The notes under the pieces are model-generated. The model was given only the letters and a program-made list of their open reading frames with translations. It did not search any database and was not told where the DNA came from. Both the position numbers and the translations under genes were made by a program. A stretch of 63,887 nucleotides of DNA, counting the filler, from Stramenopiles sp. TOSAG23-3 (lineage: Eukaryota), in NCBI GenBank assembly GCA_900128585.1. It is 11 parts of 11 records of this genome, joined end to end, with 100 filler letters (N's around TTAATTAATTAA, not from the genome) between each part and the next. Parts side by side here need not be neighbours in the genome. Positions count along the whole stretch, not along the records: positions 1 to 9,224 come from LT642940.1; positions 9,325 to 18,539 come from LT642941.1; positions 18,640 to 27,839 come from LT642942.1; positions 27,940 to 37,137 come from LT642943.1; positions 37,238 to 46,428 come from LT642944.1; positions 46,529 to 55,703 come from LT642945.1; 5 more parts are not named here. One strand, written 5' to 3'. Positions 4,411 through 55,297 of this stretch are shown here, one piece after another (the first letter of the stretch is position 1; the number at the start of each line of letters is the position of its first letter).

Positions 4411-4737
4411 TCTTGTTTGGTTTAAAAACAAAAAACTGGCCGTTGTGTTTGGAAGCTTAACAACAAAACATTGGCGGATACTCCTTCGTTTTTATCAAAG
4501 TAATTAGAATTTATCTTCCTCGTGCACCACCGCGAAAATGAACCCCTGCTACTCCCTTATTTAAGAGTTTTAAACAGCGAGACGAATCAAATCAAGTGTC
4601 AATACAAAGAACATACCTTGGTTAGACTTGCTCTTTCATTAACTCAAGCAGAAGGCACCTTTGTTAAATGCGCGTTCTTTAAACAATTTTTGTGGCATAA
4701 AATAAAATTTACTCTCTTCAGAGTTTACCTCACACTA

Positions 4738-4790
4738 TCACGAATTAGGCTTAAAACATACTATATAATTTGTTTTTTTCACGAATTAGG
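4738..4790 (+). mobile_element. ~30-bp family-B retroposed fragment with target-site duplication
   Basis: CTTAAAACATACTATATAATTTGTTTTTT (4750-4778) is flanked by TCACGAATTAGG at 4738-4749 and 4779-4790. Confidence 0.85.
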
Positions 4791-4836
4791 TAAGCCCCAC
4801 ATTCTAATGTTTTACTTTTATTGCACACACACGACT

Positions 4837-8714: not shown

Positions 8715-9059
8715 GGCTGAGTTAGTATAGGGGTTAGTACAACACGTTGTGGCCGTGTAAACCTGGGTGTAAGTAAAACATTTAAAACAGAAGTTAAAAA
8801 TTATAAACATGACTCTAACATAAGAAAATCTTAAACAGTCGATTCCCAGACTTGGCACTCAAGTCTCCAGGACATTAATTTTTTTATTTTTTTTTCTCTG
8901 CTATTGTTATGGGTTCTTGAGTTGTATCGAGTTTGTACATATACACAAAATGGAAAAAAGAAAAGATATGAATATTTTTTATGTTATGTACTTAGTTATC
9001 TATTTTGAATATACTTTAAACTATACTCCTATTTATAATTTAATTAAAATTGATTTCCT

Positions 9060-9224
9060 TCCTCTTCTTCTTTCTTCTTTCTTCTTCTTCTATCTTCTTC
9101 TTCTTTCTTCTTCTTCTATCTTCTTCTTCTTCTTCTTCTCTCTTCTTCTTCTCTCTTCTTCTTCCTTCTTCTTCTTCCTTCTTCTTCTTCTTCCTTCTTC
9201 TTCTTCTTCTTCTTCTTCTTCTTC
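9060..9224. repeat. (TTC)n microsatellite at contig end
   Basis: Direct reading. Confidence 0.95.
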
Positions 9225-10375: not shown

Positions 10376-11343
10376 AATGACTATTGCAACGGGCTGAATC
10401 GAATATTTACACGTCAATCGAATTTACATAAGTTTACCAACGTTTTCTGTTCCTTTACGTTTAAGGGAGCATGCACGGAACACTCCGGCGGGCGAACACA
10501 GGCAAGCGTTCGTTCGTTGTAAAAAACATATAACTAAAATAAATAATATATAATAAAAAATAATTATAAGTAACTACCTGTACCGGTATCTTATTGCACT
10601 TATACTAATAATAACCAACCCTCCTTCCCCCCCTTCTTTATTTTTTTATATATAAAACCAGTTATATTTTGGAACAAACAGAAGAATGATGGTATAGTGT
10701 TATCATTAGGGTAAAATAACAAAGGCAGGACTCACAGGACCGTTGGAGGTTGGAGAACATTTTAATACACGTTTAATTATTATAAGAAAATATAGAAGAA
10801 AAAAGAAGAAGAAGAAGAAGAAGAAGAAGAAGGAAGAAGAAGAGAAAGGAATCGGTTTCTGTTGTTTTTACATTAAGGATATTAGTATGTATATTATATA
10901 AATAATATTTATGTACATTATTGAATATATATTAATAGAATAATTTATAAACTAGAAGAACGAGCATACCTTATATGCTCTCTAATAAAATTAAAACCGT
11001 ATTATTTATAGGAGGTTTTTTGTACAAAATATATTATTTATTAAAATAATAATAAATATAATACTGTAATAATAATAATTAAAAAAAAAGCCAACAACAA
11101 ATAATAAAATATTATACAATAATATATACACAGACAGTAATAAAAATAGGACTTAAAAGAAAATTATTATTATTATTTTTTATTATTATTATTTAGACTA
11201 ATTTATTATAATAATTATTATACCCGTTAGGGTTCAATTGAGTATATTTTCATGTTTCATTTGCTCTCCCGAAAAATATGTTGAAAGAAATTAACATTAT
11301 AAAATGTCCGATACATCGAAATGATCAATCAAGTATATGTACT

Positions 11344-12961: not shown

Positions 12962-13003
12962 AACCGTGTGTTAAAAGTGTATGATGATAACAAAGAATTT
13001 TAT

Positions 13004-13160
13004 AAAAGCAAGAAAATTGGCTGTTATTTAAGTAATTAAAATTAATGTACTGCGAACTGAAAACTGAAAACTGAAATCTAGAGTGTGGAGTCCATGAACG
13101 ATCCGAATCGGTATCTGGATTAGCAATGCTTGCAAATGAACAAGAAAATTGGCTGTTATA
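13004..13160 (-). mobile_element. Two tandem family-A 3' fragments (~135 bp and ~22 bp) between convergent genes
   Basis: CAAGAAAATTGGCTGTTATTTAAGTAATTAAAATTAATGTACTGCGAACTG.. extends into sequence homologous to the ORF-tail region of 16966-17070 and 37390-37485. Confidence 0.85.
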
Positions 13161-13273
13161 TTAGATCATATTTACTCTTTTATGATTAATCAAAGATTTA
13201 CTTATAAAGAGATATGATATATAATCAGATCAGTGAACACGCACAGTATTTTCTAACCTTACCACCTTGACTT

Positions 13274-15202: not shown

Positions 15203-16148
15203 TGCCTTCTTCTATTCCGGCTATTGAATGACCACGGAGCTCCACAACCTTTCGAATTAGACGAATTCCTGTTCCTATTTCTTGAAGTACAATTATATTG
15301 TAGAGAGCAGAAAGGATCAGCTTATTGATGCGAAGAAGAAAAAATATGGTATATCTTGTATTTATTATATTATTATTACTATGTCGTTTCCGAACGACGT
15401 ACGGTAGTATTTATTTTTGGTACCCAATATTGAACGCGGCCGTACCGGTAAAAAAAAGTTGTTGTTGTTGATTGTTGTTGCCACATTTTTTTTCTTCTTG
15501 TAGTAGCGAGTGAGCTGCCTGCTCTGGTCTACATGTATTATATTGTAGGGAAGCGCGCACAAGTTGCAGGAAAGATAAAATAATAACATCAACAGAGTGT
15601 CGGATAAAATTCTCCAAACCAAAAACAGACAAATTTTTTCATAGAGATGACCCCCCGCTCCTGCTGTGCCCTGAAAGAAGAAAATACAAAGAATATATTG
15701 CTTTTTTTTTGCTGCTGTGCTGCTCTCGTCATTTTTTTCCATCATTTATTATTTATTATACCAAATTGGTACATATTAATACTATTATAATCTTTTTTTT
15801 TTGCTGGAGCTGGGATGATGATAGATTTAAATTATTGTTGATGATGATTGATGATCTCAATCAGAAGAAAAGAAGAAGAAGAAGAAAGAAGAGGCGGCCT
15901 GCTGACCTGCTGAGGAATAACACGTTGCTGATGATGAGATGGAATAAATAATAATTTTCAACATGCACGTTTGCATTATACTTCATAATTAGTGTTATCA
16001 CAACCGAGCTGTTAATTGCAAACTAAAGGAGCCGCCGTTTAAATATTTTGGCTTCAGCTCTTTATCCGATGAGATATAGACGAAGGAAGGTTCGCTTTTG
16101 AAGAAGGAAACTGGGTGAACAGGTTGCCCTTGTTATAGTTTGCCGCCC

Positions 16149-16964
16149 ATGGTACGGGTCGTGAGCCTAATTTTGATTTGCTTCTCAGCAATTTTTGTAT
16201 TTTTTGTGACAAATACCTTTTATGGGGTTGGCAGTGAGGGGTGGTATACCGGGCACGTTGGGCAGCGTTATGACGCTATTATTGTACCCGGTGGAGGTTG
16301 CCAACCTGGCGGTTTGCCTCATAAGCATGTCCAAGCAAGACTTGAAAGAGCGTGGGAACTGAGAAACACTACCAGGTATTTCATATTTTTGAGCCGCGGG
16401 ACCACGCACAAACCGCCCCCGATACATAAAGGGACAGGATTTCCTATTGACGAGTGCAAAGCTTCTGCAGATTATTTCTATTCAATGGGGGAAGTTAGAA
16501 AAGAAAGGATTCTACTGGAGTGTTGGAGTTTTGACACAATAGGAAATGCAGTGGCAACTTTGTTCTTCCACATTTTACCTGCAGGAATGAAGAAGCTGTT
16601 GGTCATTACAAATGAATTCCATATTGACCGCACGAAACATATTTTTGAACACATTTTTTCCTTGCCAAGCAATAAGATTGAGGCAGATTTTCTTTCCGTA
16701 GAAAATAGAGGACTTAGTGACGAAGCTCTGAGTATTCGAATCGGTAAAGAGAAGAAGGCAATAAGTGGGTGGAAAGAAATAATGCAATCACTGAAGTCTT
16801 TTTATGATTTGCATAAATTCGTTATGATTGAACACCACGCATACAGATATTCAGGAGATAAAGTTGAGTTTGATGAAGTTCAGGATGCCCAGAATATTAT
16901 ACCAGGGAAAAAAGGGGATGGCAGAGTGCAGCTAAACAGCAAATTACTCCTCGATACTTATTAA
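16149..16964 (+). CDS. YdcF/DUF218 family protein with N-terminal membrane anchor
   Basis: DAIIVPGGG, ARLERA, E..SFDTIGNA, VITNEFHIDR; hydrophobic N-terminus. Confidence 0.85.
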   Translation: MVRVVSLILICFSAIFVFFVTNTFYGVGSEGWYTGHVGQRYDAIIVPGGGCQPGGLPHKHVQARLERAWELRNTTRYFIFLSRGTTHKPPPIHKGTGFPIDECKASADYFYSMGEVRKERILLECWSFDTIGNAVATLFFHILPAGMKKLLVITNEFHIDRTKHIFEHIFSLPSNKIEADFLSVENRGLSDEALSIRIGKEKKAISGWKEIMQSLKSFYDLHKFVMIEHHAYRYSGDKVEFDEVQDAQNIIPGKKGDGRVQLNSKLLLDTY

Positions 16965-16965
16965 T

Positions 16966-17192
16966 CTGGGCGAGGAAGTTGATTATGGGTCATGTGGAAG
17001 CAGTGCTAATCCACCTACTGATTCAGATCATAGATGGAGTACATCTGAGAATGATAGTCAAGACTAAGTGGCCTAAAATAACAGAGCCAATTTTTTACTT
17101 TTGAAGGAATGTAAACCTCGAATTGTTTAGTAGATTTCAGTTCGCAGCACATTAATTTTAAATTTACTTAAATAACAGCCAATTTTCTTGAT
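16966..17192 (+). mobile_element. Family-A 3' fragments including the ORF tail EEVDYGS..SENDSQD*
   Basis: Homologous to 37390-37640 and 46080-46274; ends TTACTTAAATAACAGCCAATTTTCTTGA. Confidence 0.85.
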
Positions 17193-17267
17193 TTTAAAAA
17201 GTAAATATTATTGTCGTCCACCGGAACATTTTTACTTTTTTACTATAAAGCGCCATCTCCCGATTTT

Positions 17268-24531: not shown

Positions 24532-24991
24532 TAAACACATGGAAAAATAACAGCCAATTTTCTTGTTTAAACACATTGATAGTTTTAAAACAAGAAAATT
24601 GGCTGTTTTTTAAAAAAAAACACTAATTCTATAGACTAGTCTACATGTTATTTAAAAAAAAAAACTAATGATATAGTATGTTTTAATCACTTTAAAAAAA
24701 AAAACTTTAATAGACGACTAAGTAATTTAAAATTAATGTACTGCGAGCTGAAATCTAGATTTGGACATTCTAGATTCATGGATAGTTTAACTTTATCAAT
24801 CCTACAAATCATTATATTGCTTTAGTAATAAAATGTACGAAGTAAGAACTGCTGTTTCTTTTTAACTGTACGCTCTTATATTATTTACCGAGAGACTAAA
24901 CCAGCCCCGACTGAAATTTGTTTTTTTTTCTTTTTACATTCAGTTTGCAGTACATTAATACTTTAAATAAAACAGCCAATTTTTCTTGTTT
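24532..24991. mobile_element. Cluster of family-A and family-B fragments in both orientations between convergent genes
   Basis: A forward at 24544-24567 (flanked by TAAACACATGGA/TAAACACATTGA), A reverse ~24587-24608, degenerate B reverse ~24654-24686, A reverse ~24721-24783, A forward ~24938-24991. Confidence 0.85.
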
Positions 24992-25078
24992 AAAAAAATG
25001 ATGATAATGCAAATTATTTAAGATTTATCACTGACACACAAAGAATTTGAAATTAAGAAACATTGGATTATTCTCCCT

Positions 25079-29298: not shown

Positions 29299-29369
29299 AG
29301 GGGAAACTGGAAATCGTAGAGGGACTGTAAGCTCAATAAGATTTTAATACAAAATAAATATTTAAAAAC

Positions 29370-32776: not shown

Positions 32777-33428
32777 TCTCCCGATGCGTGCAGAACGTCA
32801 AGCCCGGGCAGCGGTCAAATTCCAAGCTATTCTTTGTAAAAGCGAACCACTGATTACCATTTTCTCTCCCTCTCTTCATTTACATTTGATAAAATATGGT
32901 TCGTTTTTATAAGATTAATAGATGTTACTATACTTTTGCTTAAATTCTATATGTTACATCGATGAGCTGAAGGCTGACGGGTAACTGCAAAATTGAAACG
33001 TTCACATCATGTTTTTTTCATACAGCCTTCTTTCATAGTATTTATTGTTAATATTCGAAGTTGTAGTGAGTGTCTAATGCGTGATGGTATTTTATAGTAT
33101 GGTTGACTGTAGTGTTAATTATGTAAAACACCTATAATGTCTTTTTATTTTTTTTATTATTATTAGACTTATTAATTATTAATTATAATATTTTTTTTTA
33201 ATAAAAAAAAAAAATAATAATACCTACCTATAATAGTCTATCTATACCATTTCGCACATTTGTTCTCGCAGTGAATGAATGAAACGTCTACATTCTACAT
33301 ATCTCCCCCCATATTTAAATAGCTTTGGTTTGCATATGTACGTGTAACGGCAATTATATTTGATTTTATATTTTGAATCCGCATCTTTGGATTTTGCATG
33401 GGCGGTACCAAGCCTATCACAAACCGTA

Positions 33429-35270: not shown

Positions 35271-35283
35271 ATAAAAATAAATT

Positions 35284-35394
35284 AACAAGAAAATTGGCTG
35301 TTATTTAAGTAATTAAAATTAATTTACTGCGAACTGAAATCTAAATTTAGACATTAGATTGAAATCGTAATTGATCTAAAATGAGAGTCTTAAA
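35284..35394. mobile_element. Family-A fragment (reverse) fused head-to-head with a family-B fragment (forward)
   Basis: AACAAGAAAATTGGCTGTTATTTAAG..CTAAATTTAGACA, then GATTGAAATCGTAATTGATCTAAAATGAGAGTCTTAA, which matches 38588-38624. Confidence 0.85.
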
Positions 35395-35506
35395 GATTTT
35401 ACCCGTACGGGTACCGGGTACAGTATATTTGTATCATAGGTAATCATACCCCAAAAATAAATAAATGTGTGTAATGTGTAAAATATTCTATCCGTAAGAG
35501 TAGTTT

Positions 35507-36751
35507 TTACAGTTTCCGCTTGTAGATTTTTTTCAGCAGCTGCTGGAATACTTCTTGAGGAACTATAGACTCGTTGATTTCACCGATCATTTCTACCAGC
35601 TTTTTGTAGCTCTTTTCTTCGTAATCTTCGAAAACTTTGGTTAAATTGAGCTCATTGTACAAATTCTTTATTGCTTTTTCTGACGCCTCATTCTCACCTT
35701 TTCCATAGTGCGTCTCCAGCATTCGCTTCTGGTTGTTTGAGCACATTTTTTTGGCTTGAACAACTAGCCAGGAGCACTTGCAATCTTTGATGTCTGTGCC
35801 AATTTTTCCAATGACTTCGGGTGCCCCGTAGCAGTCTAAATAATCGTCTTGAACCTGAAAGTACTCGCCCATTTCCAAGCAAATGCTCAGCGCTTGCTCG
35901 TACGCACCAGAGCTCTCGTCGATCTCACCCATAATCATACCAAGGGCAACGGGAAGGTAAAAGGAGTAGAAGGCGGTCTTGTACCTTACGATAGCGGCAT
36001 GGCGCTCTATTGTGAACTTGTTCAGGTCTGGGATGGCTGGTGGCAACGGCTGTGTCGTCAAGTCCAGGAGCTGGCCCAGCTCAGTTTGGTACGTGACCTC
36101 GTGAAACAGATCCAATAGCTTCACGTATCTGGCGGGGTTGTCGCCACCAAAATGTTTTTTTAAAAGTCGGTAAATATGCGCTTCAAGCAAGAAAGAGTCG
36201 TTAACTGCGCAGTTTCCAACCCCATCCATACGGTACCAGCACGGCTTCCCTCGGCGCGTAATCGACGTGTCCATCAAATCGTCCGCAACCAAGAAAAAGG
36301 CCTGGAGCCACTCGACGCTCCAGCCAAGAATGGACGCTTGGTAGAGTTCGTACGGCGTCATCTTTCTGCCACGAAGGCAAATTCGCGCTGTGTGAACCAC
36401 CGTTAGGCCACGGTTCATTTTCCCCCCGGGAACAGCGTGATTCATACACTTTCGAACCCACTCAACCCCGTCAGCCGGTGCTTCAAAATTATCCTTCATA
36501 TCTGCAATAATTTCCTCGGCCAAAAAGTCAAAGACTTTGGAAAAGAACACTTTGTCCTTGCTGGCGTCTGCGACAGCCAACCACTCCTTCATCAGCGTTT
36601 CGGCTTTTTTCGAAAAATGAGAAGCTTTTGACGACGAAGCACCAGAGCAGGACGGGCCCGCTCGAGAGCTCAAAGCAAAGTACGAACCAGCAGCACCCAC
36701 AAGAGTTGCAAGCACCAGTGGCAAAGCGTCGTTGAAAGAGTTGGAAGACAT
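35507..36751 (-). CDS. FDPS: Farnesyl pyrophosphate synthase with hydrophobic N-terminal extension
   Basis: GGKMNRG, QAFFLVADDLMD..TRRG, GQLLD, YKTAFYSF, YFQVQDDYLD, GTDI. Confidence 0.95.
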   Translation of the reverse strand: MSSNSFNDALPLVLATLVGAAGSYFALSSRAGPSCSGASSSKASHFSKKAETLMKEWLAVADASKDKVFFSKVFDFLAEEIIADMKDNFEAPADGVEWVRKCMNHAVPGGKMNRGLTVVHTARICLRGRKMTPYELYQASILGWSVEWLQAFFLVADDLMDTSITRRGKPCWYRMDGVGNCAVNDSFLLEAHIYRLLKKHFGGDNPARYVKLLDLFHEVTYQTELGQLLDLTTQPLPPAIPDLNKFTIERHAAIVRYKTAFYSFYLPVALGMIMGEIDESSGAYEQALSICLEMGEYFQVQDDYLDCYGAPEVIGKIGTDIKDCKCSWLVVQAKKMCSNNQKRMLETHYGKGENEASEKAIKNLYNELNLTKVFEDYEEKSYKKLVEMIGEINESIVPQEVFQQLLKKIYKRKL

Positions 36752-37237
36752 GGTGGTGGACGTTCAAAACAAGGATATGTATGCGGTGCTATCAAACGTT
36801 TTTGTTTTTAAAATTAAATTGTTTACTTATGATTCTTAGGGTCAATCGTTTCTTTTCTTCCTTTCACTTCCATTCGTGAATTTATTTACAATATGTATTC
36901 GTATAGAGATATATATCCCAACTCCTCTTTGAAAAGATTGGATGGAGTACTAAAGACTAGAAAAGAAAAAGAAGAGTTTAAATTGTACCAGTAGCTCTTC
37001 TATATAGTCTAACGAGTAATTTGTGTGAAGATGAATGTTGAGATGTGATGGCCGCCGTCCAATGTGCCAATACAATAGAGACGTATCTCATAGTACTTAC
37101 GAAGATAAATAAGTATAAATACCACCGACCGGGGGGGNNNNNNNNNNNNNNNNNNNNNNNNNNNNNNNNNNNNNNNNNNNNTTAATTAATTAANNNNNNN
37201 NNNNNNNNNNNNNNNNNNNNNNNNNNNNNNNNNNNNN

Positions 37238-37641
37238 CCGACTTAAACGACCCTCCCCCGATACTTCAACTCACAAATGATAATTCCCTGAGTGATTTAC
37301 AAGACAGACAACGAGCACCTATAAAACATTCACGCCGCTGCTTGGAAAATTATGCATGGAATGATTCATCTACGAGTGAGACATTTGACGAGGAAGTTGA
37401 ATATGGGTCTTTTGACATCGACGCAATTCCACACACCGATTCGGATTATGCACGGAGTACACTTGAGAATGATAGTCAAGACTAAGTGACAAAGGTATAT
37501 ATTGATTACTAAAATCACAACTGTAGAGATAAATTCGCAGTACAGAAAGGAACGTAAACCTTTGATGGACAAAAGGAGTAGATTCATTTTTGCGGTATAT
37601 GAGGAAGATAACATTTTTAATTACTATGATATTTAAATAAC
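37238..37641 (+). mobile_element. Long family-A 3' copy: open C-terminal frame (DLNDPPP..STLENDSQD*, stop ending 37485) plus 3' UTR
   Basis: Collinear with 45928-46274, 45213-45410, 44085-44290 and 16966-17070. Confidence 0.8.
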
Positions 37642-38046
37642 ATCGGAGTTTGGGTTCTTGAACGGTTTTACCTTCTTTTTTCTTTTCTTTTTTGACTTAA
37701 AACATACTATATATATAATTTGTTATCGTTGATTTTCCACTTCAGGGCGTATTCGTATATTCTTGCATCATCACTCTCAGCATATTCTGTACCATACCCA
37801 TCAAACAAGGAAGACATGCGCCTAGATTGATTTAAATACTTTGATCTGCAATAGGAGGAGATATTGTGATTGAACTGACAACCCATTTTTCATTTTATAC
37901 ATAATATAAATACCTTGACGAGAAAGCTAAATTTTAATACTTAAATAACAGCCAATTTTCTTGTTTTTAAAAATGTAAAATACCTAAGGTGGTGTCGTGA
38001 ATCAATACATTACGACTGGCTGAAACGGATCAACTCAATTGAGGAA

Positions 38047-38625
38047 ATGAGTTCTACAGACAACTCCGATGAGCCTAAACGGGCGAATCACCTGCAGGTA
38101 TTTCTAAAACTTGGACCAAACTCCACGGACGCTGATAATCTATCCCCCCCAACATCGCAAGTGTCGAACAGATCCAGGCAACCAAAAAACAAATCTAGCC
38201 GCTGTTTGAACTCTGGGGATGATGTCGAAATGGATTCTACAGCTACCTCCGCTAAGTGTAACCGAGTGTTTCACCGGCCGGGTTTTCCAGAATTTGGACC
38301 CAATTTCAGAGACGCTGATAATCTACCCCCCCCAACACCAAAAGAGTCGTACAGATCCAGGCAATCAAAAAACAATTCTAGCCGCTGTTCGAGTTTTGGT
38401 AATAAAGGGACGATTGATTCTCCAAGTGACTCTGTGGATGAAATTATCAGGGGCTTTGACTGGGAATCGGGCCGGTTTGTTGAATACAGATCACCTTTAA
38501 CAAGAAATAATTCCTCAGTGATTGACAACCAACGAAAAAACGAAATTAAAAAATCAAATTAAATAATCAAGATAGGATTAGGGTTGGAATTGAAATCGTA
38601 ATTGATATAAAATGAGAGTCTTAAT
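38047..38625 (+). mobile_element. Family-B ORF tail (internally duplicated Ser/Pro-rich 171-aa frame) plus family-B 3' UTR
   Basis: Two copies of GPN..DADNL.PPT..RSRQ.KN.SSRC. The downstream ATCAAGATAGGATTAGGGTTGGAATTGAAATCGTAATTGATATAAAATGAGAGTCTTAA recurs at 46295-46370 (reverse) and in part at 35357-35393. Confidence 0.65.
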
Positions 38626-38679
38626 ACACTTAATGTCGGAATACGTGAATATTAACGTACCTGCCCAAACTCGGGCTTT

Positions 38680-39250
38680 ATTCACGCCAGTATTCCAAAA
38701 GACAATCGTAGAGGATATTGCAAAGCTGTGCGACCAATCTCCTTAATCTAGAGGATGAAAGAAGACCCAAAAGGCTCGCGAAATTTACTGCGCCTCCAAG
38801 AACTGGAACAATAAATACAGCGCCGCGAAGGCTCTTCTTGGGGTTTCCTCACCCCAAGCAACTACATGGAACACCAGTAGTGCCCGCTACTTTATTGCCG
38901 AAAATAAATAGCTAACATTAACACAACGCTCACAACCAATTGTTTCAAAAGAAACAAAAGGGATAAAGTATTATAACCGAAAACTCTTCGTGCTTCGTGA
39001 GAAACAACAATTGACATCCATTTGCTGGCAAGTTTTTCCTCCTTGAGAGAAAACGAAAAGATATTTGCGCGGTTTTTCTGGAATAAAACCCGGCTGCTAT
39101 AGAAGAAGACATAGTGCTCGACTTCTTAGCACCAGTACAAAGGTCTCATTCGAAGCGCCGCACCGCAACCGACTGGAAGGTTATCTTTGGATACTTGTCT
39201 TGCAAAACGAAAAACTGCATGCGATGGAGGAGAGTTTTATAATATATATC
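38680..39250 (+). pseudogene. Decayed non-LTR reverse transcriptase domain
   Basis: IPK..VRPISL (38692-38745), NAHN (38925), KGLIRSA resembling G..QG.P (39139), AMEE resembling (Y)xDD (39221), in RT order and roughly RT spacing, with stops and frameshifts. Confidence 0.45.
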
Positions 39251-39506
39251 TTTATCGATAATAAAATTATTACTAAGCAAAAACTGATTCTTTATTATTA
39301 ATCTTTAGCTAAGGTAGATACTACATCCCACAGCTAAATAATACCACCTACACAATTACAGCTAATCGCTACGCTGCGTTACACAAAAAGTATAATACGT
39401 CAAGTATTTAAAAATTATAACACTTAAAGCAGTATAATAATTTGTTTTTCTAAAATACCTAAATAACAATCATAATACCTTAAATAACAACCATTTTATT
39501 TTGTTT

Positions 39507-40247
39507 TTAAAGCACATTCTCTTGTACACATTTGAGAGTTTCAACGTATTTCTTATAAAACTCGTCAGCCAAAGCATTGAATGGCGCTTCAGTGCCAGCA
39601 TGACGTAAGGCAGAGGTTTCAAAAAATTGAAAGCCTTCTCGTTGAGCAAATTTTTCACCCTCTTCCCTAGTAACAGCAAAACGATTTGCATCTCGCAGAT
39701 CCATCTTATTAGCGATTACTATCCCGGGCATCGAAAATCCTGGGCGTGTAGCCCTGACTTCGTTCAGCCACTGGCCTAGCGCGACAAAAGAATCACGGTT
39801 TGATACATCGTACACAAATACGCACGCTGACGTGTTTGACCAGTAGTCATGTAGCATTTGGCGCTGGTTAAAAACTTTTTGGCCAGACGTATCAAACAAG
39901 TACATTTCTACCTGAACATTAGTCCCCGGGACATCCACAGTTTTAACAGAAAATTCACAACCCAAGGTCATAACATAATTTTTCGGAAAATTGTGGCCAC
40001 CGCTGGCAAACATTTGCACTAGCGCCGTTTTCCCAACCGCATAATCTCCAATAACAACCACCTTCTGCCTCAGAACTAGAATGTTTGTATGCGTTGTTTG
40101 CATACTCTGAATCGCTTTCACAGCTGCATTTTCGAACGTACTTTCCACCGGGGATACAGTGTTGGTAGAACGATCGTCATACGATGAAATCTTCGGTGCA
40201 AACTGATTAATTGTCCGGACTCTCTCTATTCGGGTCTTTCGTTCCAT
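39507..40247 (-). CDS. IFT27: Intraflagellar transport protein 27 (RABL4 small GTPase)
   Basis: LRQKVVVIGDYAVGKTAL, FPKNYVMT.G, VEMYLFDTSGQ, PGIVIANKMD, FFETSA, EAPF..LA. The true start may be internal (MQTTH). Confidence 0.88.
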   Translation of the reverse strand: MERKTRIERVRTINQFAPKISSYDDRSTNTVSPVESTFENAAVKAIQSMQTTHTNILVLRQKVVVIGDYAVGKTALVQMFASGGHNFPKNYVMTLGCEFSVKTVDVPGTNVQVEMYLFDTSGQKVFNQRQMLHDYWSNTSACVFVYDVSNRDSFVALGQWLNEVRATRPGFSMPGIVIANKMDLRDANRFAVTREEGEKFAQREGFQFFETSALRHAGTEAPFNALADEFYKKYVETLKCVQENVL

Positions 40248-41579: not shown

Positions 41580-42860
41580 TCGTATATTAATTCCTTTCTA
41601 TTGGGTGTAACCCTACTAAAAATTGGGGACAGCTCGGAAATGAAGATTATTCCTCTCCCCAACACAAAGAGAAAGGAACAACGTCAGAAGAAAAAGAGGA
41701 AGACGAATTCGTTAAAATATTTTGAAAGTAACAAGTCGACAATTGGAGATAGTGTGACAAATTTGTTACACGTCAAACCATCTTGTCTACTAATCCCTTG
41801 AGGTGTGGTGAAACATATTTGAATCCCCAGTAAAATGAGGTATGCAGCTCAAGTTCTTTCTTCCTGAACATTAATTTAAATATCTAGTATTGCATTTACC
41901 ATGGATAAAGAATTAGGAACTTCACCAATACATTTAAAACGAATGGTTCGGGATGAAATACGTTCTGTACAGGTGCTGGATATCATATCTTCTTCACGCA
42001 GGCGCATTTTTTCGGAAATAAACGAAGACTTGGATAATAAAACAGTGGAAAAAAATGGTACTCACGCAGGTCTGAAAACTGCAAACAATCCTCTCAGTGT
42101 ACAGCAAAGGTTGGGAATCCCGCTACAGGGAATTTTCGGTACGTGTCTATTGGGAGAACACATTGCAGCGGGGACGTACTGCATAAATTTAGAAAAAAAC
42201 GCGACAAAGAATAAATCTAATCATGCGTTGGACCAGCTCTCTTTCATCGATATTTTGAATGTTCCTACAATGACTGATACACTATTGGGATGCCATTTAC
42301 ATACTCGAAATGAGCTCGGGAAAAAACAGAAATAAAGGTTCTCGAAGCTTTTTTACAGTGTTATAATTCGGAATATTGAAACACAGATCCATGGGTGACA
42401 AAAGGGGGAACACGTCATCCTATTCCATGTCGTTTTTCCTGTACGTGCGGGAAAAAACAATCTAATTCGAACCGTGCACAGCGTGTTAATGCACAGTGGA
42501 CGGTGAGGATAATGGTGTGACGCATGGGCTTTGGGCTATTCCTCTCCTGATTTCGATGCATTGTTTTATTAACATACGCCCAGCTACGCACAGGTAGGAA
42601 TTCTTGCAGCACAAAAAAGGTTGAAGTAACAGAGACAGAAATCGATTCAATAGTAACTGAATTTAATTTTTGCCTTTTTATTAAAATAAAATTCGAAAGG
42701 GTCAAAGGTCAGGAAAATTTGAAGATCAAAGAGAATAGTTTCACAAGATTTTAATAAAAGAACCTCCTGGAACCACTCCCGAACCAACCGATGACCGATT
42801 ATATTGGGAATCAAGCTGATAGCCCAACGGTTTATAACGGCCGCCTTCCCGTTGACCAAT
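41580..42860 (+). pseudogene. Decayed C-terminal half of an RLE-type (CRE-like) non-LTR ORF (candidate)
   Basis: Fragments in order across frames: LLGV..IG, SG..W, QRLGIPL..C, D.LG.HLH, D....H.PSY...AA....K, YW..LIAQR..AA. Confidence 0.3.
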
Positions 42861-43639
42861 TCCCGCCAAACAAGAGTAAATAAGGACCCATCGCAAACGA
42901 AAACATGAAGGGCTCAGCGAGATGTAATGAATCGTTTACCACCCCTAGAGACAAACGAAAGCGTCAATCGGACAAAGTCCCCCTGCCTTTCGACAAATTA
43001 TAAAGAAGTTTATTTTGGCGAGAAGGATATCACGACGTTAGTTCAGAGCAATGGTGTTGGGTGGGACTACTCGGATTCGCAATGTCGTATCTAGTGACCA
43101 AGATGAATATCTTGGTAAAAGGCCGAGAAAGGGTGAATATCAAAGAAAATAGTTCATAATTTTAACGGCCTGAAACTAATACTGAGAATGACTTGAATGG
43201 TTCACTCAACAGACAAAGTAACACACGTGCACTGCTGTTCAGTAAATCACACAAATTTGATTCAGATTTGAGGGAGTCTCAGGAGACCGGAGAAGTTGGA
43301 GAAGATGAAGCCATTGAAAAATATATGAGTGACATGATGACCACTGGAAGGAAATAAATTTCTTGAATGGAGTCCTTGAAGATTTATAAGCTAGAATATA
43401 AAACTTGTGACAAAAACCAAAACGTGTAATACGTTTTTAATTTTATAAAATATAAATGAAAATGAGAGCGGTGTAAACTTTTTCTTGAAGCGAAAACTAA
43501 ACCACCATGTTCGGAATATTGTATGCTAGGGCCGTAATGCTCAACGTCATAAAATAAAAGGAATGCGTACGTTTTAGAGACAGACAACAGAACCACAGCA
43601 ATGCACACCAGCCTACCATCGCAACATAGCCCTTCAACG

Positions 43640-46428
43640 ATGGCTATGATTACCAACCCAAACTACACTCCCCTCGACCCATTACCGATCATTCCTTGAA
43701 CGATTTACTGGACAGAAAACGAGCAACTTTACAACATTAAAGCCGCTGCCCGATAGATCAAACAAGTTATGATATATCAGTTATGAGTGGGACACCGGAT
43801 GAAAAAATTGATCATGAATTGGACGAAGTCGTTCAAGCACCATTTATCGAAAGAGGTTAACTGGAGTAAACCAAGAGGATAGTGAATATTAGGAAGGAAA
43901 CAAATTGAGATCGCAGGGAAAGTACATAACTAACTTTTTAAGTTTAGAGATTTAAAAAAAAAACATATATATAGTATGCTTTTAAGACTCTCACTTATAT
44001 CAGTCATTGATTCTCTTCGAAATCTAGATTGTTTTCGAGATATCAATAACAACATAGTGCTTAACAGCCATTTTTTTATTTTTAGTCAAGACTAAAGCGA
44101 CAAGGGTATTTGATACTTAAATAACAGCCAATTTTCTTGTGTTTTTTAAGTAAAACAACAAAAGCAGAGATAAGTTCGCAGTACATGAAGGAGCGTAAAC
44201 CTATAATGGGCAAAAGGAGCAGGTTCATTTTCGCGGTACATGATGAAGATAAATTTTAATAACTTAAAATTAACAGCCAATTTTTGTTTTAGAAGTTAAT
44301 TTCTTAACATATAAAGTGAATTAGTTTTAAAAAAAACCGAATTAGGTTTTTTTAACGATTAAACCTTACTTTAGGTAAAATCGCCCCTGACTGCTCGAAA
44401 AGCAAATAACGTTGGGAACAAATGGCAGGTGAATGGTGCCTAGAAGAAAATTGTTAATTTTCGATGGAGGATGTTTACAAGAGCATAACGATAAAAGAAA
44501 AGGAACACCAAGAAATCAAGACAAAAGGCGAAAATATAGAAACTCGAGACGGAAGTAAAAAATAGATTTGAGACAAAAAACAAGTTAATCTGAGTGATTT
44601 ACAATCAAATGAAACATTTATGTTATAATCAAATGGAAACATTTACTTGTAATTTAGATAATCTGAATTAGTATTTTTAAAAGTTAAACTTATTAATTCA
44701 GTTTATCTAAATTTTAATTTAAGATACGGCTCTAGCCCTAACGGCCCTACCAATGGACAATGCCGCTGAAGCAGCCGACCATGCACCCTCTATCCAGAAT
44801 TCGCCAAGCTCGGACTCGGGCCCGGAGATGGAACCGCACAGCTCCGACGAAGGGCAACCCAGTAGTATCGCGACTCTAGAAGTATCAACTTCGGCCCATG
44901 ACACAGAAGAGTGCCATCCTCGGACGAATCAGTAGTGGGGGAGGAAGTGGGTATGGGTATCCACAGAAGGACGAGACAACAGCTCTCGCAAGGAGCCCCC
45001 CCCCCCCCTTCCCCTAAACCCAGTAATTATAACCTCAGACGAAGTGGCAAGGGAGGCGGAAGCGGATCTGGGTATCCCCAGTAAGACGAGAAACAAACAC
45101 AAGCAACACCAACGCCCCGCAGCATCTGGTTTAATGTCGAACAACACAACCACACCACCGCACACCGAACCTTTATCACTGCAGCAAAAACCCCTAATGA
45201 TGGTTCCCAACACCGACCTGAACGACTCTTCCCCGCCATCCCAACCCACCGATGACCATTGAACAATTTACAAGACAGAAAACGATTGCCTTAAAAACAT
45301 TTACACCGCTGCTTAATAAATCACACAGGTTCTGAGTCATTTATGAGTAACATATCGGCTGAAGAAGTTGACTATGGGTCATTTGACATCGTCGAAAATC
45401 CAAATTTAAAAGAACGTCCGTGGAGTTCATTAGATTCAATGAATGGCCCGAGGGAAAAATCGCCCCCGACAATTCAAAAAGCAAGAAATTCTGGGAACAC
45501 TAGCAAGTCAAGCGTACCTAAGAGGAAGAGAATAAAACAATTATTTTTTGGTGGAAGTACAAAAACAATTCAAGAGAAAAAAAAGAGAGAAAAAAAACAA
45601 AAAACAAACTAGTACAGCCACATGAACGTATAATCTTCGAAAGAGAAAAAAGAAAAAAATAACCTGAATGGTTTAACATCAAATTAACCTTTAGTGGTTT
45701 AACATCAAATTGAAACATTTACTTTATAATTAACGCCCCGACCCTATTAGTGTCATCCTCGGATGACGACACAGAGATACAGTCCTCCATACAGTCTTCA
45801 GAAGAAGGGGACCAAAGCATTGCCAGCAGGACGAGACTTCAACTGGCACGCCAACGACTCCCAACCATCGCGTTGCTTACCGAATCTTCACCATTGGAAC
45901 AGAACTCACAAACGCCGATTACGCACACCGACTTAAACGTCCCTCCTTCAACACCTCAATTCACAAATGACAATTTCCTGACTGGTTTACAAGACAGACA
46001 ACTCGCACCTTAAAAAACATTCACGCCACTTCTTGTAAAACTACACAAGGAATGATTCATCTACGAGTGAGACATTGGATGAGGAAGTTAACTATGGGTC
46101 TTTTGACATCGACGCAATTCCACACACTCATTCGGATCATGCATGGAGAACACACGAAAATAATAGTTAGACTAAGTGACAAGAGTACATTGATTACTAA
46201 AATCACAACAGTAGAGATCAGTTCGCAGTACATTAATTTTAATTAACTTACATAACAGCCAATTTTTTGTTTTTAATTTAGAAAAAAAACAAATAAGACT
46301 CTCATTTTAAATCAATTACTATTTCAGTTCCAACCCTAATCCTATCTTGATGTTTTAATTTGATTTTTGTTTTTAATTTAGATAAAAAAAGCAAGAAAAT
46401 TGGCTGTTATTTAAGTAATTAATTTAGA
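43640..46428 (+). mobile_element. Head-to-tail pile-up of 5'-truncated copies (families A, B and a third 3' variant C)
   Basis: Tail copies ~43640-43760, 44085-44290, 44720-45410 and 45732-46274; variant C 44376-44660 resembles 45455-45731; B reverse ~43955-44015 and 46283-46369; A reverse 46384-46418. Confidence 0.75.
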
Positions 46429-48794: not shown

Positions 48795-49074
48795 CACGGC
48801 ATATGTGTATCGTTAACGAATAATGATCCAGTCTTAAACGTTATCGTTTTAAATATCTTTATTATATATAACATATAGTCGTCTATAAACCCTGGTATAA
48901 AATATTAGAGACTACTAAATGAAATGCAAATAATAAAAAATATATTATTTTATTTATAAAAAAAAAATATCTTCTTTTTTCACACTTTTTTTTTCATCAA
49001 ATTAATATATTAAAATTATGCTGTGTATATGTTATTGAGTTGTTGAGAAGAAAGAAGTATAATATTCCACCCCA

Positions 49075-49135
49075 AGAAGAAGAAGAAGAAGAAGAAGAAG
49101 AAGAAGAAAGAAGAAGAAGAAGAAGATGAAGAAGG
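49075..49135. repeat. (GAA)n microsatellite
   Basis: Direct reading; a similar tract lies at ~10795-10845. Confidence 0.9.
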
Positions 49136-49509
49136 AAATAATAATTATTTTATTTTTTTTATTTTGTTGTTTTTGAAATTCCTATAAATAATATATTTAA
49201 TATTAATTATAATAACAACACAAAGAACAGCAGCGCAGGAAGCATTATAATAAATATCAACAAAAAATCGAAGAAAAGAAGAAAAAATAAAAAAAGGGAG
49301 AAGAGGAGAAGAGGCGGAGGTGTCTTCTTCTTCTCTTCTTGACACCAACAATTATTATATCAAATTTACACAAACATGTATTAATATACAAAGAGATGTA
49401 TGTGTATGTATATCATTGTTATATAGAGTAATAAACAGTTTCAGTGTTTTCTGTCTAGGTGTTGGAAAACCTCTGCTTGTTGGTTGGGCATCGTTTCTAA
49501 AGGGAAGTA

Positions 49510-50798: not shown

Positions 50799-50849
50799 TT
50801 CTAAAGTCTAAAAACAAGAAAATTGGCTGTTATTTAAGTTCTAAAGTCT
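50799..50849 (-). mobile_element. 29-bp family-A fragment with a perfect 11-bp target-site duplication
   Basis: TTCTAAAGTCT (50799-50809) + AAAAACAAGAAAATTGGCTGTTATTTAAG (50810-50838) + TTCTAAAGTCT (50839-50849). Confidence 0.92.
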
Positions 50850-50925
50850 TCTTATTCTTTACACTTCGTAAGAGCTAAACATATGCAACTCTTTTCGTAG
50901 AAAATTAATATTTGCGTGTTAACAG

Positions 50926-51747: not shown

Positions 51748-52265
51748 TCTTCTGCTTCGTTGTATACTTCCTATACAGTGAACGTGGACGGAATACTATA
51801 TCACCCTGTGCTTTAAGACAAAAATGGCGTATTTTTTGTTTTAATTTGATATGTACTTTAAAAAAGTGAACTTTCTTTTCCTTTGCTTTGTGTAAAAAGA
51901 CATAAAAATAAAATCGGCGTAAGTGGAACATACACACCACCTCCAGAGCAGCAGAGAATCACCTCACTCACTCACTCCTCCTCAACTCGCCAAAACCACA
52001 AATCATTTCAGTGCTGTGTGTTGGTTGTACTTCATCACCATAAAATAAAAAAATCAATAAAAAAGAAGAAGAAGAAAGAAGAAAGGGTGATGAGCGTCTG
52101 AGTCTGAGCCACTATTAATAATATTAATAATATTAATTACCGGTATAATTAAGAGTTAAATAAGCAAAAAAAATACAACGTTAAACATGCATTAATTCTT
52201 ACGGTACATTACATTACTAAGTTGATATGATTGCTGGTTAAAAAAAGAAACACAAGAGACTATTA

Positions 52266-54860
52266 CTAATGATTGAACGATTTAATATGCGTTTCTACAA
52301 ACATCCTCAGGCATTCCGTCAAATATTCTTCTTCCTGGCAATGCTTATGGTGAGAAATCCGAATTATTGCTTCCGCAAAATCATGCAAATTGTACTTATT
52401 GTTGTATTGAGGTCTGCGCCCACCCCGCGCGTGTGCCTTTTGCATCAATATATCGGCCTCTGCGACAGGAAAATCCTCGGTGATGCACCCGGCATCTTTC
52501 AAAAAATGGTGAAACCCGTGGTCGTGCAGCAGCGGTTCGTTGTCGTCGTGGGAGTGGGAAACATAGTGATAAAACTGCTCCTCCAAGCTTGCCTGAATTT
52601 CATAAATGTATTGAGTCAACATCCACATTTCCATCTTCTCGTCGTGGTCATGAAGTAAATCTTGAATGTGCAGGTTGTACGGCGGTTTTTTCTTCGATCC
52701 ATCGTTATCATCCTGAGGGAGAAACCTTCGGTAGTGATCCCTTTCTTTTCTAGTCATGCTCAGGACGTCGCGTGTGTCTCGCAACGTTGCCGCTGTGTCG
52801 TTCAATCGCTCAGAGTATTCCAGAAGTTGCCGCCTGAGGGCTTCGATTTGTTCGTTCTGCTCTTTTCTTACCTGTTCCGCTTCTCTATTTCTATTCTCTA
52901 ATTCTGAAATTCTGGCTTCGTTTTCCGTCTTTGCATTGGACAAGCTATCAATATTGTTCTGCATGCTAGTAAGAATTTTGAAAGAGGTTTCTCTTTCTGC
53001 CTGGACTGTTGTTCTTAAATCCTGTATGACATTGTTGTTGTCCGTGTACTGCTGTTCTAAATCCCTGTTTCGCTGTGTCAACACGCCGCATCGCTCTTTC
53101 ATTTCGCGGCAGCTTTGGGCACTTTCATTCATTTCCCTTGCCGTTTTCAACAGCTGGGATGCAAGCCCGTCGGATTGCTCTTTGGCTTCCGTTAACTCTG
53201 TCGAGACTTTTTCCAGCCGCTTTTGGGCCGTTTGCGACCTTTGGATTTCCGAGCCGAGGGTGTTATGGTACTCGTCTAATTCCCGGGCCATCCCTGCGAG
53301 AATTTTTGGCCCCAGGATACGGGTGACCCGAGTCTGTTGGTGCCCATTGATGCCAACAGCGTGGTGGGAACCAAACCCCCTTGGTAACTTTTGGCCAGGG
53401 GCTTTTGATGCCTTGTAATCAATACGGGGGACCAAGGTGCACAGCAGATCAGCCGTGGGATTTCTTCCCTTGGCCTTTACCCAAGAGGGCACCGCGCCGC
53501 GCCATTTTGTGCCTATGATTCCTATCATCACTGCGTAGTCAGACATCCTCAGACCTTCTATCCTTTTCCGCTTTGCGACTTCACTTTCGTCGATGACAAA
53601 CTCGCAGACGAGCGCATCCAATTTTCCCTGAATGGATCGTTTGTTGATGTAATTCGTGATTTGCATTACCTTGCGGCGCAAGTCGTCTGATATTTTCTCA
53701 TCTTTCGTCGGCTCCACGCGCGGTTTGGGTCGTGGGACCCGGCCAATCATTCGTTCCATATTTAGCGTTTTCGAGGACAAGTCGGTTGCTTCGTTGGAAT
53801 ATCTCAGGGCAAATGTTTCGCAAGCTGCCCGTGCGGTCGAAGGATCGTTGATAAAGACGACGATGTATCTAGTGTCATTGTACGCCGGGACAAACTCTTG
53901 GATAGCAACCACGCAGTCATCGTTTTCCCCAGGGCCTTTCCCCCCCTGCGAGGAATGCTCTTGCAAATCGCAGAAAAAAAGCTCCAGCCCTCTCGTGTCT
54001 ACCAAATCTGCACTGGACTTTCTTCTCAGGACAGACATTGGATGGTAACTCCCGGCACGCCGTTCCCTGCATGTCGTGAGTTTGCTTTTTATGTGGTGCC
54101 TCGTCAGCATGGAGCTTGGTCTTTTCCTAACCAGCCCGCGGCGGTCGTTCGTGAACCATGATACAAACGTACCATTATCGGTGAAGAATATTGTCTCTGG
54201 GATTCTAATTGGCACACCTACTCCTTTGATATGTGGGTTCAATGGACACAGCAAGCTAAACATTCCCCACATTGTCTCTCCCCTCACATGCATTTGCCTG
54301 GGTTGATGAATGCTGTTCATATCAACAGCGCTAGATGGACGCTGCCGAGGCATTCTCACCCGCCTGCCAGCAGTGACGGGGCGGTGCGATCGTCTGTTTT
54401 CTTTTGCTGTAGATGGGCGATTGAATGACTGGTGGCGCTTTGATCCACTGGCAGTGCCTTTGGTTTTCGATATAGCAGATTGCCTTGCGTATGCTGTACT
54501 TGGCCGTTGCCTACTTTGGGTACTGCTGAACACTCTCTTTGTTTTCGAATGCCCTGCGTCATTGTTTGATAAGGAAGTCGGCGGTTGATACGTCGTTCTC
54601 TCGCTTTTGTTGCCATCCTCCTGTTTCGTTCTCTCGACTAATATTATTTTTTCAGACCCATTGTCACTCCCGCCTTCTCCCGTTTCGACACCCGCAATTA
54701 GTTCACTCATTTCCACCACCGCCGATGAGGAGCTGTTCCTGATCCCATTGCCATCGTTTGTCTGCCCGCCCTCTAGCACATCCTCCTCCTCTCCGATCGA
54801 AGTGTAAGCTTCAGAAGTCGACGTGTCCTCCGAATGTTCCGATAAACTGTTCGTATCCAT
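52266..54860 (-). CDS. Large protein: disordered N-terminus, possible degenerate ATP-grasp-like region, coiled coil and helical C-terminal domain
   Basis: 864-aa ORF; IPETIF..IQEFV..EFVID motifs; heptad region; C-terminal DFAEAIIRISH. Confidence 0.75.
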   Translation of the reverse strand: MDTNSLSEHSEDTSTSEAYTSIGEEEDVLEGGQTNDGNGIRNSSSSAVVEMSELIAGVETGEGGSDNGSEKIILVERTKQEDGNKSERTTYQPPTSLSNNDAGHSKTKRVFSSTQSRQRPSTAYARQSAISKTKGTASGSKRHQSFNRPSTAKENRRSHRPVTAGRRVRMPRQRPSSAVDMNSIHQPRQMHVRGETMWGMFSLLCPLNPHIKGVGVPIRIPETIFFTDNGTFVSWFTNDRRGLVRKRPSSMLTRHHIKSKLTTCRERRAGSYHPMSVLRRKSSADLVDTRGLELFFCDLQEHSSQGGKGPGENDDCVVAIQEFVPAYNDTRYIVVFINDPSTARAACETFALRYSNEATDLSSKTLNMERMIGRVPRPKPRVEPTKDEKISDDLRRKVMQITNYINKRSIQGKLDALVCEFVIDESEVAKRKRIEGLRMSDYAVMIGIIGTKWRGAVPSWVKAKGRNPTADLLCTLVPRIDYKASKAPGQKLPRGFGSHHAVGINGHQQTRVTRILGPKILAGMARELDEYHNTLGSEIQRSQTAQKRLEKVSTELTEAKEQSDGLASQLLKTAREMNESAQSCREMKERCGVLTQRNRDLEQQYTDNNNVIQDLRTTVQAERETSFKILTSMQNNIDSLSNAKTENEARISELENRNREAEQVRKEQNEQIEALRRQLLEYSERLNDTAATLRDTRDVLSMTRKERDHYRRFLPQDDNDGSKKKPPYNLHIQDLLHDHDEKMEMWMLTQYIYEIQASLEEQFYHYVSHSHDDNEPLLHDHGFHHFLKDAGCITEDFPVAEADILMQKAHARGGRRPQYNNKYNLHDFAEAIIRISHHKHCQEEEYLTECLRMFVETHIKSFNH

Positions 54861-55273
54861 GTTCTCCTTTTGTCAACAAGGGCGCGTCCCACGTTCTTTT
54901 TTTCTTTCTTTCGTACAAAATCAATCAATATCAAATCATATACGTTTTTTATATTTACAAACATTAATTCACTCATTTTATTCTTCTTCAACCCACACCC
55001 CACATACGAATATTTGGTTAAAAAAATTATAACATTATAAAAAATAAATTATATAGGTGAAACGGTTCATTAGTTAACAGGCACACAGCTCCTTGGTATT
55101 ATATTGCATTTAGATTTTTATTTAAAAATCACAGCAAAGGAGCAATAGAGAAGAATAAGAGTCAATAAAATAATTAAAAAAGAAGAGAAGCTTTGGCTCC
55201 TCCATTTTTGTCTCTTCGAACGCCCGCTCCCTAAGGCGGCTCCTTGGGCCCACGGTCGAGGGTGTGGTGATTT

Positions 55274-55297
55274 TAAAAACAAGAAAATTGGCTGTTA
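55274..55297 (-). mobile_element. Short family-A fragment downstream of a gene 3' end
   Basis: AAAAACAAGAAAATTGGCTGTTA. Confidence 0.75.

Follow-up and report, generated by a model that had tools for sequence, protein, structure and literature searches.

Retroelements of gene-dense genomes are known to settle at tRNA genes, ribosomal DNA, spliced-leader genes, telomeres, heterochromatin or promoters, and Tf1 targets promoters used by RNA polymerase II (Pol II). Ty1/Ty3 and Dictyostelium TRE are described as retroelements found at tRNA genes in compact genomes (PMC5006619, PMC6101501, PMC7459421), and R2 and other elements with a restriction-like endonuclease (RLE) as inserting through target-primed reverse transcription (TPRT) with frequent 5' truncation, R2-like elements that are not site-specific being described as well (PMC7650587). 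The R2Bm protein is ordered as thumb, helical linker, CCHC knuckle and RLE, and exhibits a likeness to Prp8 (PMC10499050). The window examined here, a whole stretch of 63,887 nucleotides joined from 11 records of Stramenopiles sp. TOSAG23-3 (GCA_900128585.1), carries a family of very short repeats that a first-pass annotation had described as micro-retroposons marking convergent gene ends.

Both parts of this description are upheld. The retroposon nature of the copies is well supported by a fixed end, continuous 5' truncation, duplications of 9-15 bp in excess of a permutation control and a multi-copy open reading frame (ORF) with an FADD motif, and that they mark convergent gene ends has strong support, both from the window and from 108 additional loci. 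The claim that the family is targeted to these places is finely balanced. Because of their fixed end, their variable lengths, their duplications and their continuity with an ORF harboring a motif like that of a reverse transcriptase (RT), the repeats are read as dead-on-arrival, extremely 5'-truncated copies of a family of elements lacking long terminal repeats (non-LTR), made by TPRT; that reading, extended to a confinement at gene 3' ends arising mainly through insertion bias, is given an even chance.

Anatomy of the copies and traces of insertion

All copies were read on the strand that places the shared end at 3'. This end has the sequence ...AATAACAGCCAATTTTCTTGTT followed by zero to five T, beyond which the flanks diverge sharply; the edge of conservation, at about -4 with respect to the core, is sharp, while decay is gradual on the inner side. 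The lengths of the copies form a continuum between 23 and 226 nt that falls off about geometrically, the median being near 50, and the shortest retained content is 19 nt. The fixed end and variable other end noticed in the first-pass annotation are recognized in this sharp common end and continuous range of truncations. Among BLAST matches to a long reference, 150 of 213 end at reference position 570-586, and loose ends of contigs placed on the window fall at 35284, which is the fixed end, and at 35321, where one subfamily switches to another. At least three lineages are common only in their last ~37-40 nt (...TAATTACTTAAATAACAGCCAATTTTCTTGTT plus a few T), their upstream parts being different.

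Exact direct repeats of at least 9 nt flank 66 of 168 copies, as compared to 16.7 +/- 3.3 (maximum 25) in 200 permutations of the flanks. These target-site duplications are of variable length, 9-15 bp, and in 29 of 48 non-redundant cases (repeats of at least 10 nt) the repeat lies at most 25 nt beyond the copy length measured independently. The fixed end is CTTGTT plus zero to five T, and the duplication follows the T run directly: neither a poly(A) nor a simple-repeat 3' tail was found between copy end and duplication in the duplication-bearing copies. The 29 empty sites that could be reconstructed are merely AT-rich, without one specific target sequence, and the first duplicated base is T in 20 of them. 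About a quarter of the duplication-bearing copies are located inside or against an older copy.

Repeats of this size might instead be remnants of DNA transposons or of miniature inverted-repeat transposable elements (MITEs), or a short regulatory motif that has arisen many times, and some copies do form inverted pairs (24544-24621; 29650-29714). Such an origin is highly improbable, however, as there is just one fixed end and no terminal inverted repeat bounds a unit, the length of the duplications varies, identity spans 60-220 nt and runs into a coding region, and the parent protein has the RT-like motif. No head of a short interspersed element (SINE) derived from tRNA, 5S or 7SL RNA is recognized in the window, where ARAGORN and Rfam (at gathering score) both return zero hits.

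Contigs of two DNA and two RNA runs were placed on positions 27940-37137. In this interval the summed depth at the core is ~31,000-39,000 versus ~4-5 in single-copy bins, a value that is not a copy number and that hints at a family of thousands of copies. Contigs break at the repeats and reveal neither poly(A) sites nor empty sites, and the joints across copies, with sides of just 21-30 nt, look like cross-joins between copies. A scan of viral contigs yielded 38 pattern matches, none of them confirmed, and a literature search for the core sequence came up with nothing but an unrelated mouse paper of 1995.

To note, the 3' untranslated regions (UTRs) of the C subfamily (for example L020 1582, L023 1292, L037 4494; window 46320-46345) contain TTAGGATTAGGGT, which resembles the TTAGGG telomere repeat, and a similar ...TAGGGTTGGA... 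sequence is joined to another repeat at loose ends at 35359/35360.

Distribution relative to genes

The 26-base core, allowing at most 3 mismatches on both strands, has 14 matches in the window and none in 100 dinucleotide shuffles of it. A profile of the tail, built on the last 50 nt, identifies 20 window copies at E<=0.01 plus 6 weaker ones, in rough agreement with the about 25 family-A copies counted previously. The eight or so family-B copies of that count are reduced to 3-4 B-type pieces with subfamily-specific probes.

Additional loci were collected by a metagenome scan with a 19-base part of the core, which produced at least 120 loci totalling 823 kb; L014 alone among the listed loci overlaps the window. 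Thirteen were removed, seven as chance 19-mer matches in unrelated DNA without a 26-mer match and six as near-duplicates of other loci. L061 and L081, considered as diverged orthologues, were rejected as chance 19-mer matches inside unrelated coding DNA. At up to 4 mismatches the core has 181 matches in the window and the 120 listed loci, and none in block shuffles. The final distribution table comprises 109 sources (the window and 108 metagenome loci), 797,926 bases and 170 core matches, with non-overlapping ORFs of at least 150 amino acids standing for genes.

Convergent regions contain 83 of these matches (60/86 regions occupied, 1.91 per kb), tandem regions 23 (18/98 regions, 0.27 per kb) and divergent regions 2 (2/53 regions, 0.04 per kb), and ORFs, which make up 66% of the bases, contain none. 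Another 62 lie at locus edges and are unclassifiable; 49 of them adjoin a 3' end and 3 a 5' end, 10 being without an ORF nearby. Since convergent and divergent regions alternate along a chromosome, equal numbers of both are expected, and the 60:2 split between them has a binomial p of ~1e-15. The ratio of occupied convergent to divergent regions is 67:1, 60:2 and 50:2 at ORF cut-offs of 100, 150 and 250 amino acids.

The window alone, which is unbiased by the core-based search for loci, shows a match in 6/8 convergent, 1/7 divergent and 1/8 tandem regions (convergent versus divergent, Fisher p = 0.04). Clear copies are present in six of the seven tail-to-tail regions singled out by the first-pass annotation (12961/13274, 16964/17268, 24488/25079, 29298/29975, 35270/35507, 50631/50926), the seventh (4410/4837) holding degenerate tails and a B-type fragment, as it had stated. 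Its six head-to-head regions are indeed devoid of matches and harbor GAA/TTC simple repeats instead, and none of the 16 core matches of the window is inside an ORF of at least 150 amino acids, in line with the reported absence from coding sequence. As for the copies it placed 3' of two more genes, that beside 55441 is found, the "gene" itself being a 104-amino-acid ORF cut by an N mask, while at 39507 there are weak matches only. A gene-poor, repeat-rich stretch from ~36.8 to 46.5 kb, which had been left unclassified, contains several copies and long fragments (37238-37970, 44062-46425); both the divergent and the tandem region with a match belong to it. The copies at 37238-37970 are upstream of the start of a farnesyl-diphosphate synthase gene (35507-36751, minus strand).

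On a finer scale, the matches lie at a median of 138 nt from the nearest stop, 130 of 155 being within 300 nt; 22 of the 23 tandem matches are closer to the upstream stop than to the next start, and even where a tandem region exceeds 1.2 kb the stop is only 50-310 nt away from the copies. The distribution is alike for copies whose duplications are intact: 16 convergent, 5 tandem, none divergent, 7 at an edge beside a 3' end and 1 at an edge beside a 5' end. Relative to the nearest gene, 96 copies are antisense and 59 sense (p = 0.004). The AT content of the region classes is nearly uniform (0.66, 0.66 and 0.64), and the target-like word TTTAA is at most 1.8-fold enriched in convergent regions. 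Divergent regions are longer, ~950 bp on average, and are depleted 30- to 50-fold in copies.

GAA/TTC simple repeats of 20-174 bp mark the promoter-side regions, divergent and tandem, as a mirror image of the copies; each kb contains 3.1 GAAGAA words if divergent, 2.3 if tandem and 0.7 if convergent. Among five near-identical pairs of loci, no insertion or deletion coincides with a copy. One such difference, a 1,354-bp apparent coding stretch (L103 2997-4350) present in only one of two contigs otherwise 99.9% identical (L103 and L113), could be a haplotype deletion or an assembly difference and is unrelated to the copy family.

The parent element and its protein

Long copies run upstream, in the same sense, into a coding region ending ...EEVDYGS...TDSD..WST.ENDSQD*. 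The longest database protein of this parent family, P0121, is 744 amino acids long and is encoded on a 2.5-kb contig. With P0121 as query, tblastn detects many pieces in 23 listed loci and the window, which start at varied residues and nearly all reach the C-terminus, as 5' truncation would look at the protein level. An exhaustive HMMER search retrieved 302 relatives, of which the best 150 are all short fragments. P0128, and then P0272-P0274, extend farther upstream. P0274 begins MLAAFADDLTIVAPP, and its start reads MLAAFADD with the RT-like FADD; this is the catalytic motif of many non-LTR reverse transcriptases. Among named Atlas clusters, those nearest to P0274 carry RVT_1 (in 20% of members; score 0.92, with 177 features in common) and regions of Prp8, neighbours that are leads, not proof.

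In P0121, a conserved CPC...H....C.SHG motif precedes acidic and lysine motifs that are conserved as well (alignment A1), and the conserved domain downstream of this CCHC motif is suspected to be a restriction-like endonuclease as in R2. The C-terminal 200 residues of the parent protein are acidic and contain repeats such as LVVSSSDEDTE, which presumably resemble SUMO-interaction motifs. The parent is considered with fair confidence to be a non-LTR retrotransposon. Its being R2-like is a lead only, because Pfam, PDB and fold searches gave nothing.

The only repeated long ORFs among the listed loci belong to host gene families (ABC transporters, leucine-rich repeat and ankyrin proteins). The predicted protein P0197 joins the first ~295 residues of an FAE1/KCS-type condensing enzyme to residues 443-533 of the element protein; either an element has inserted within a host coding region or beside one, or the assembly has produced a chimera. 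A multi-copy ORF at 38047-38562 (+), with internal tandem repeats (38044-38206 / 38227-38389), is related to a 305-residue ORF of L028 (3-1176, +) with a DGHCLL motif; this motif is reminiscent of OTU cysteine proteases, although there is no Pfam match. These ORFs may be part of the parent element or of another mobile element.

Proposed mechanism, possible insertion bias and selection

The following mechanism can be proposed. Several parent lineages differ in their 3' UTRs, and the RT would presumably recognize the common ~37-40-nt tail by sequence. Reverse transcription would start at the end of the tail, at a nick in AT-rich DNA, where an RNA template ending in a short U run may pair with an A-ended primer; it would usually abort after a few dozen nucleotides, giving a median copy near 50 nt, and a second-strand cut 9-15 bp away would generate the target-site duplication. 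The parent ORF would encode, in this order, an RT (FADD), a long thumb/linker, a CCHC knuckle, the suspected endonuclease and an acidic SUMO-interaction-like tail. A bias of insertion toward Pol II gene 3' ends could act by tethering at termination zones, and purifying selection would then sharpen the pattern.

Copy anatomy, duplications, the link to an ORF and the distribution are observations; insertion bias, or selection after insertion, is a reading of them. The first-pass annotation had offered two readings, targeting of termination zones or retention as 3'-end signals, and this two-way choice omits a third, unbiased insertion followed by purging from promoters and genes. According to the latter, the same retroposon copies would have no regional preference beyond AT-rich DNA, and in a compact genome with a huge population size, where gene 3' flanks are the sole nearly neutral DNA, insertions in genes and promoters would be lost and those in 3' flanks would persist. 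That purging acts follows from the absence of matches in ORFs. The antisense bias of 96:59, the lower occupancy of tandem regions, which also hold a promoter, as compared to convergent ones, the weakly specific target sequence (T as first duplicated base in 20/29) and the single case of a host enzyme fused with part of an element also fit this explanation. As the whole cause of the pattern, it is nevertheless a doubtful, if sizeable, possibility. The divergent depletion would require nearly all of ~950 bp to be intolerant of an insertion of 25-60 bp, in regions that nonetheless carry variable GAA/TTC tracts of up to 174 bp. In long tandem regions the copies are 50-310 nt from the stop, not anywhere outside the promoter, and copies with intact duplications are equally restricted.

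Insertion bias is thus favored because tandem copies are near the upstream stop, because duplication-bearing copies show the same pattern, because promoter-side GAA/TTC tracts of 30-170 bp are tolerated, and because the classes are no more than 1.8-fold apart in AT content and TTTAA density. That it is the main source of the near-exclusive location within ~300 nt of stops is evenly poised.

Several points weigh against the combination of retroposition and insertion bias. The antisense bias is the kind of trace that selection leaves, and promoter-side selection would equally give the lower occupancy of tandem 3' ends (18/98) relative to convergent ones (60/86). The truncated host FAE1/KCS-like enzyme fused to an element fragment in P0197 points to insertions within or alongside coding sequence. 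Neither an empty site nor a presence/absence polymorphism turned up, the insertion sites of new events being therefore unseen. The ORF-based gene model is crude; the loci were ascertained via the core itself, so that absolute occupancy is inflated, and with a GC content of 32 to 52% they may mix several related organisms. Regarding the parent protein, Pfam shows no significant RT or endonuclease domain, PDB sequence searches with the single sequence and with a profile gave nothing relevant, and the AlphaFold2 (AF2) model is poor (predicted local distance difference test, pLDDT, 57) and has no Foldseek match. No full-length element was recovered, the N-terminal part upstream of FADD being absent from the recovered fragments.

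The second reading of the first-pass annotation fares less well than targeting, which is plausible. Fragments could be kept at gene ends as roadblock terminators, insulators or 3'-end processing elements, positive selection filling the convergent regions. Indeed, 60/86 of these hold a copy and many hold several, the repeats occur in metatranscriptome contigs, and the core contains what we take to be CCAAT-like and Myb-site-like sequence, which may hint at such a role. This explanation is unlikely: the retained content ranges from 19 nt to >220 nt on either strand, the RNA fold of three tails is no better than that of shuffles (z 0.2-0.8), and 26/86 convergent regions overall (2/8 in the window) are without a core match. 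Duplications of up to 15 bp are still exact, which speaks for recent arrival rather than old conserved signals. Orientation, RNA fold, copy content and occupancy thus provide no positive evidence of a terminator function.

Beyond insertion bias in general, one may tentatively envisage, at a little less than an even chance, a non-LTR retrotransposon lineage of an abundant marine protist that is actively steered to the termination zones of Pol II, preferably at convergent ends, perhaps via binding of the acidic SUMO-interaction-like tail to a 3'-end factor, and whose thousands of micro-copies of 20-100 nt form much of the 3' UTR and terminator DNA. Such a safe haven would be one that is not known to have been described for a retroelement.

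Features of the window

The window DNA is compact, intron-poor and eukaryotic, with ~41% GC, and was found in marine metagenomes and metatranscriptomes from 15 studies. Its host genes include a SNF2/RING helicase, a kinase, a PreP-type peptidase, a farnesyl-diphosphate synthase, whose best named relatives are ~50% identical (stramenopiles, chytrids), and a Rab-like GTPase. Paired 44-base N stretches, taken to be masks, occur at about every 9.3 kb up to 55.8 kb and then about every 1.6 kb. The features are assembled in Table 1.

Table 1. Element copies and fragments, followed by simple repeats, located in the window
Position	Strand	Description
4422-4544	-	Degenerate tails at 4422-4448 and 4457-4480, plus an internal fragment of B type at 4498-4544; convergent region 4410/4837
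13002-13140	-	~135-nt copy; tail 13002-13048; inner part 13083-13139 from parent C-terminal coding region
13139-13170	-	~36-nt copy abutting the preceding one; nested or tandem insertion
16966-17197	+	~231-nt copy beginning 2 nt past the stop codon that ends ORF 16149-16964; remnant of coding sequence 16972-17061 (P0121 residues 714-743), weak internal tail-like motif 17073-17096, tail 17156-17197
24544-24569	+	25-nt copy with 9-nt direct repeat TAAACACAT
24584-24621	-	~30-nt copy, inverted relative to the preceding one, 21-nt gap between them
24692-24776	-	A1-type inner fragment; core replaced by other sequence (TAGACGACT motif)
24940-24993	+	Degenerate copy, tail 24971-24992
29369-29460	+	~94-nt A1-type copy
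29524-29570	-	Short copy, B/C-type inner sequence
29650-29714	.	Inverted pair of short copies: 29650-29692 in minus sense, 29683-29714 in plus sense
29759-29847	-	Tandem pair of short copies, tails 29769-29805 and 29804-29837
35278-35393	-	A1-type copy of at least 72 nt, beginning 8-14 nt past the stop of ORF 33429-35270
37238-37625	+	Long fragment, 5' side cut by N mask; coding remnant 37240-37479 (P0121 residues 664-743), then UTR; no tail detected
37925-37970	+	~45-nt copy, core perfect; repeat-rich stretch, upstream of the farnesyl-diphosphate synthase gene
39445-39493	+	Weak degenerate tail matches (E 1.1 and 5.3) at the 3' end of Rab-like gene 39507-40247 (minus)
44062-44298	+	Cluster of three or four nested copies; tails 44112-44144 and 44249-44284; A1/B inner parts 44149-44253
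45085-46285	+	Longest window fragment; frame-shifted parent-ORF remnants (45085-45429; 45735-46167 = P0121 residues 611-742), ~100 nt of UTR, tail 46234-46276
46364-46425	-	Short copy, tail 46386-46425, running into N mask
50799-50847	-	29-nt insert between exact 11-bp target-site duplications AGACTTTAGAA; convergent region 50631/50926
55273-55297	-	~25-nt copy, 144 nt from the stop of partial ORF 55441-55755 (minus) and 413 nt from the start of 52266-54860 (minus)
9051-9224		GAA/TTC simple repeat
10773-10851		GAA/TTC simple repeat
15863-15892		GAA/TTC simple repeat
49074-49139		GAA/TTC simple repeat
52064-52085		GAA/TTC simple repeat

In the interval 42001-46000, gene-poor and with plus-sense element fragments, the plus strand is strongly skewed toward A over T (0.17-0.22). 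Another repeat family, ~520 bp long, with copies 78-89% alike and without the family-A tail, is present at window 56867-57340 and in L002, L065, L077, L096 and L098; in the loci it starts ...AAGACGACCGTCGTTG and ends ...CAATTCCGCGCCAAAGATAC. The window copy is located in convergent region 56766/57391 and runs into an N mask. A motif related to this family, TAGACGACT, is found beside several family-A copies (24700, 29640, L035, L078).

Significance and comparison with known systems

If insertion bias holds, a family that keeps to where protein-coding genes end would add a new strategy, and perhaps a new kind of safe landing site, to those of retroelements in gene-dense genomes, and termination zones would carry a feature readable by retroelement machinery. 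Even if selection alone accounts for the pattern, TPRT would usually stop after a few dozen nucleotides, on a template ending in a short U run and not in poly(A), and a single family fills most convergent regions of an uncultured marine eukaryote present in the metagenomes of many studies. In practical terms, the copies offer an easy way to tell how genes are oriented in contigs of the source organism that lack annotation.

Like the safe-haven elements, the copies keep strongly to a single place with respect to the transcription units of a gene-dense genome. The place differs: it is the 3' end of Pol II genes, mainly of convergent pairs, and ARAGORN finds no tRNA gene in the window. The preference is read from the distribution of surviving copies. 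A literature search covering few subscription journals found no description of retroelements that target the termination zones of Pol II, convergent genes or the 3' ends of genes.

In the "stringent" pairs of long interspersed elements (LINEs) and SINEs, both partners have a common 3' tail. The lineages described here, with unrelated upstream sequence and common last ~37-40 nt, are similar in this respect, and such a tail fits an RT that recognizes it. No Pol III-type head (tRNA, 5S, 7SL) was found, in contrast to SINEs, and the lineages look like sister autonomous elements or fragments thereof. MITEs and DNA transposons are readily distinguished from the copies, which have one fixed end and duplications of varied length.

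With L1 the copies share duplications of variable length, truncation at the 5' side, a nick site rich in AT and microhomology of the template's 3' end with the primer. Their template, however, appears to have a short U run at its end that pairs with a primer ending in A, where L1 pairs poly(A) with T, and their truncation is far more extreme. The precise 3' end without poly(A) and the 5' truncation liken the copies to R2/RLE elements. Some non-LTR clades also lack poly(A). The order of the parent ORF, which appears to be RT, thumb/linker, CCHC and C-terminal domain, would likewise correspond to that given for R2Bm (PMC10499050). Unlike R2/RLE elements, the copies are found at AT-rich sites of gene 3' flanks with no single target sequence, most of them measure tens and not hundreds of nucleotides, and the parent protein bears a long acidic tail with SUMO-interaction-like repeats; its RT and RLE are without support from profile or fold searches. 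Overall, the copies behave like 5'-truncated R2- or L1-type insertions, but they are shorter, end in a U run and are confined to the 3' ends of genes.

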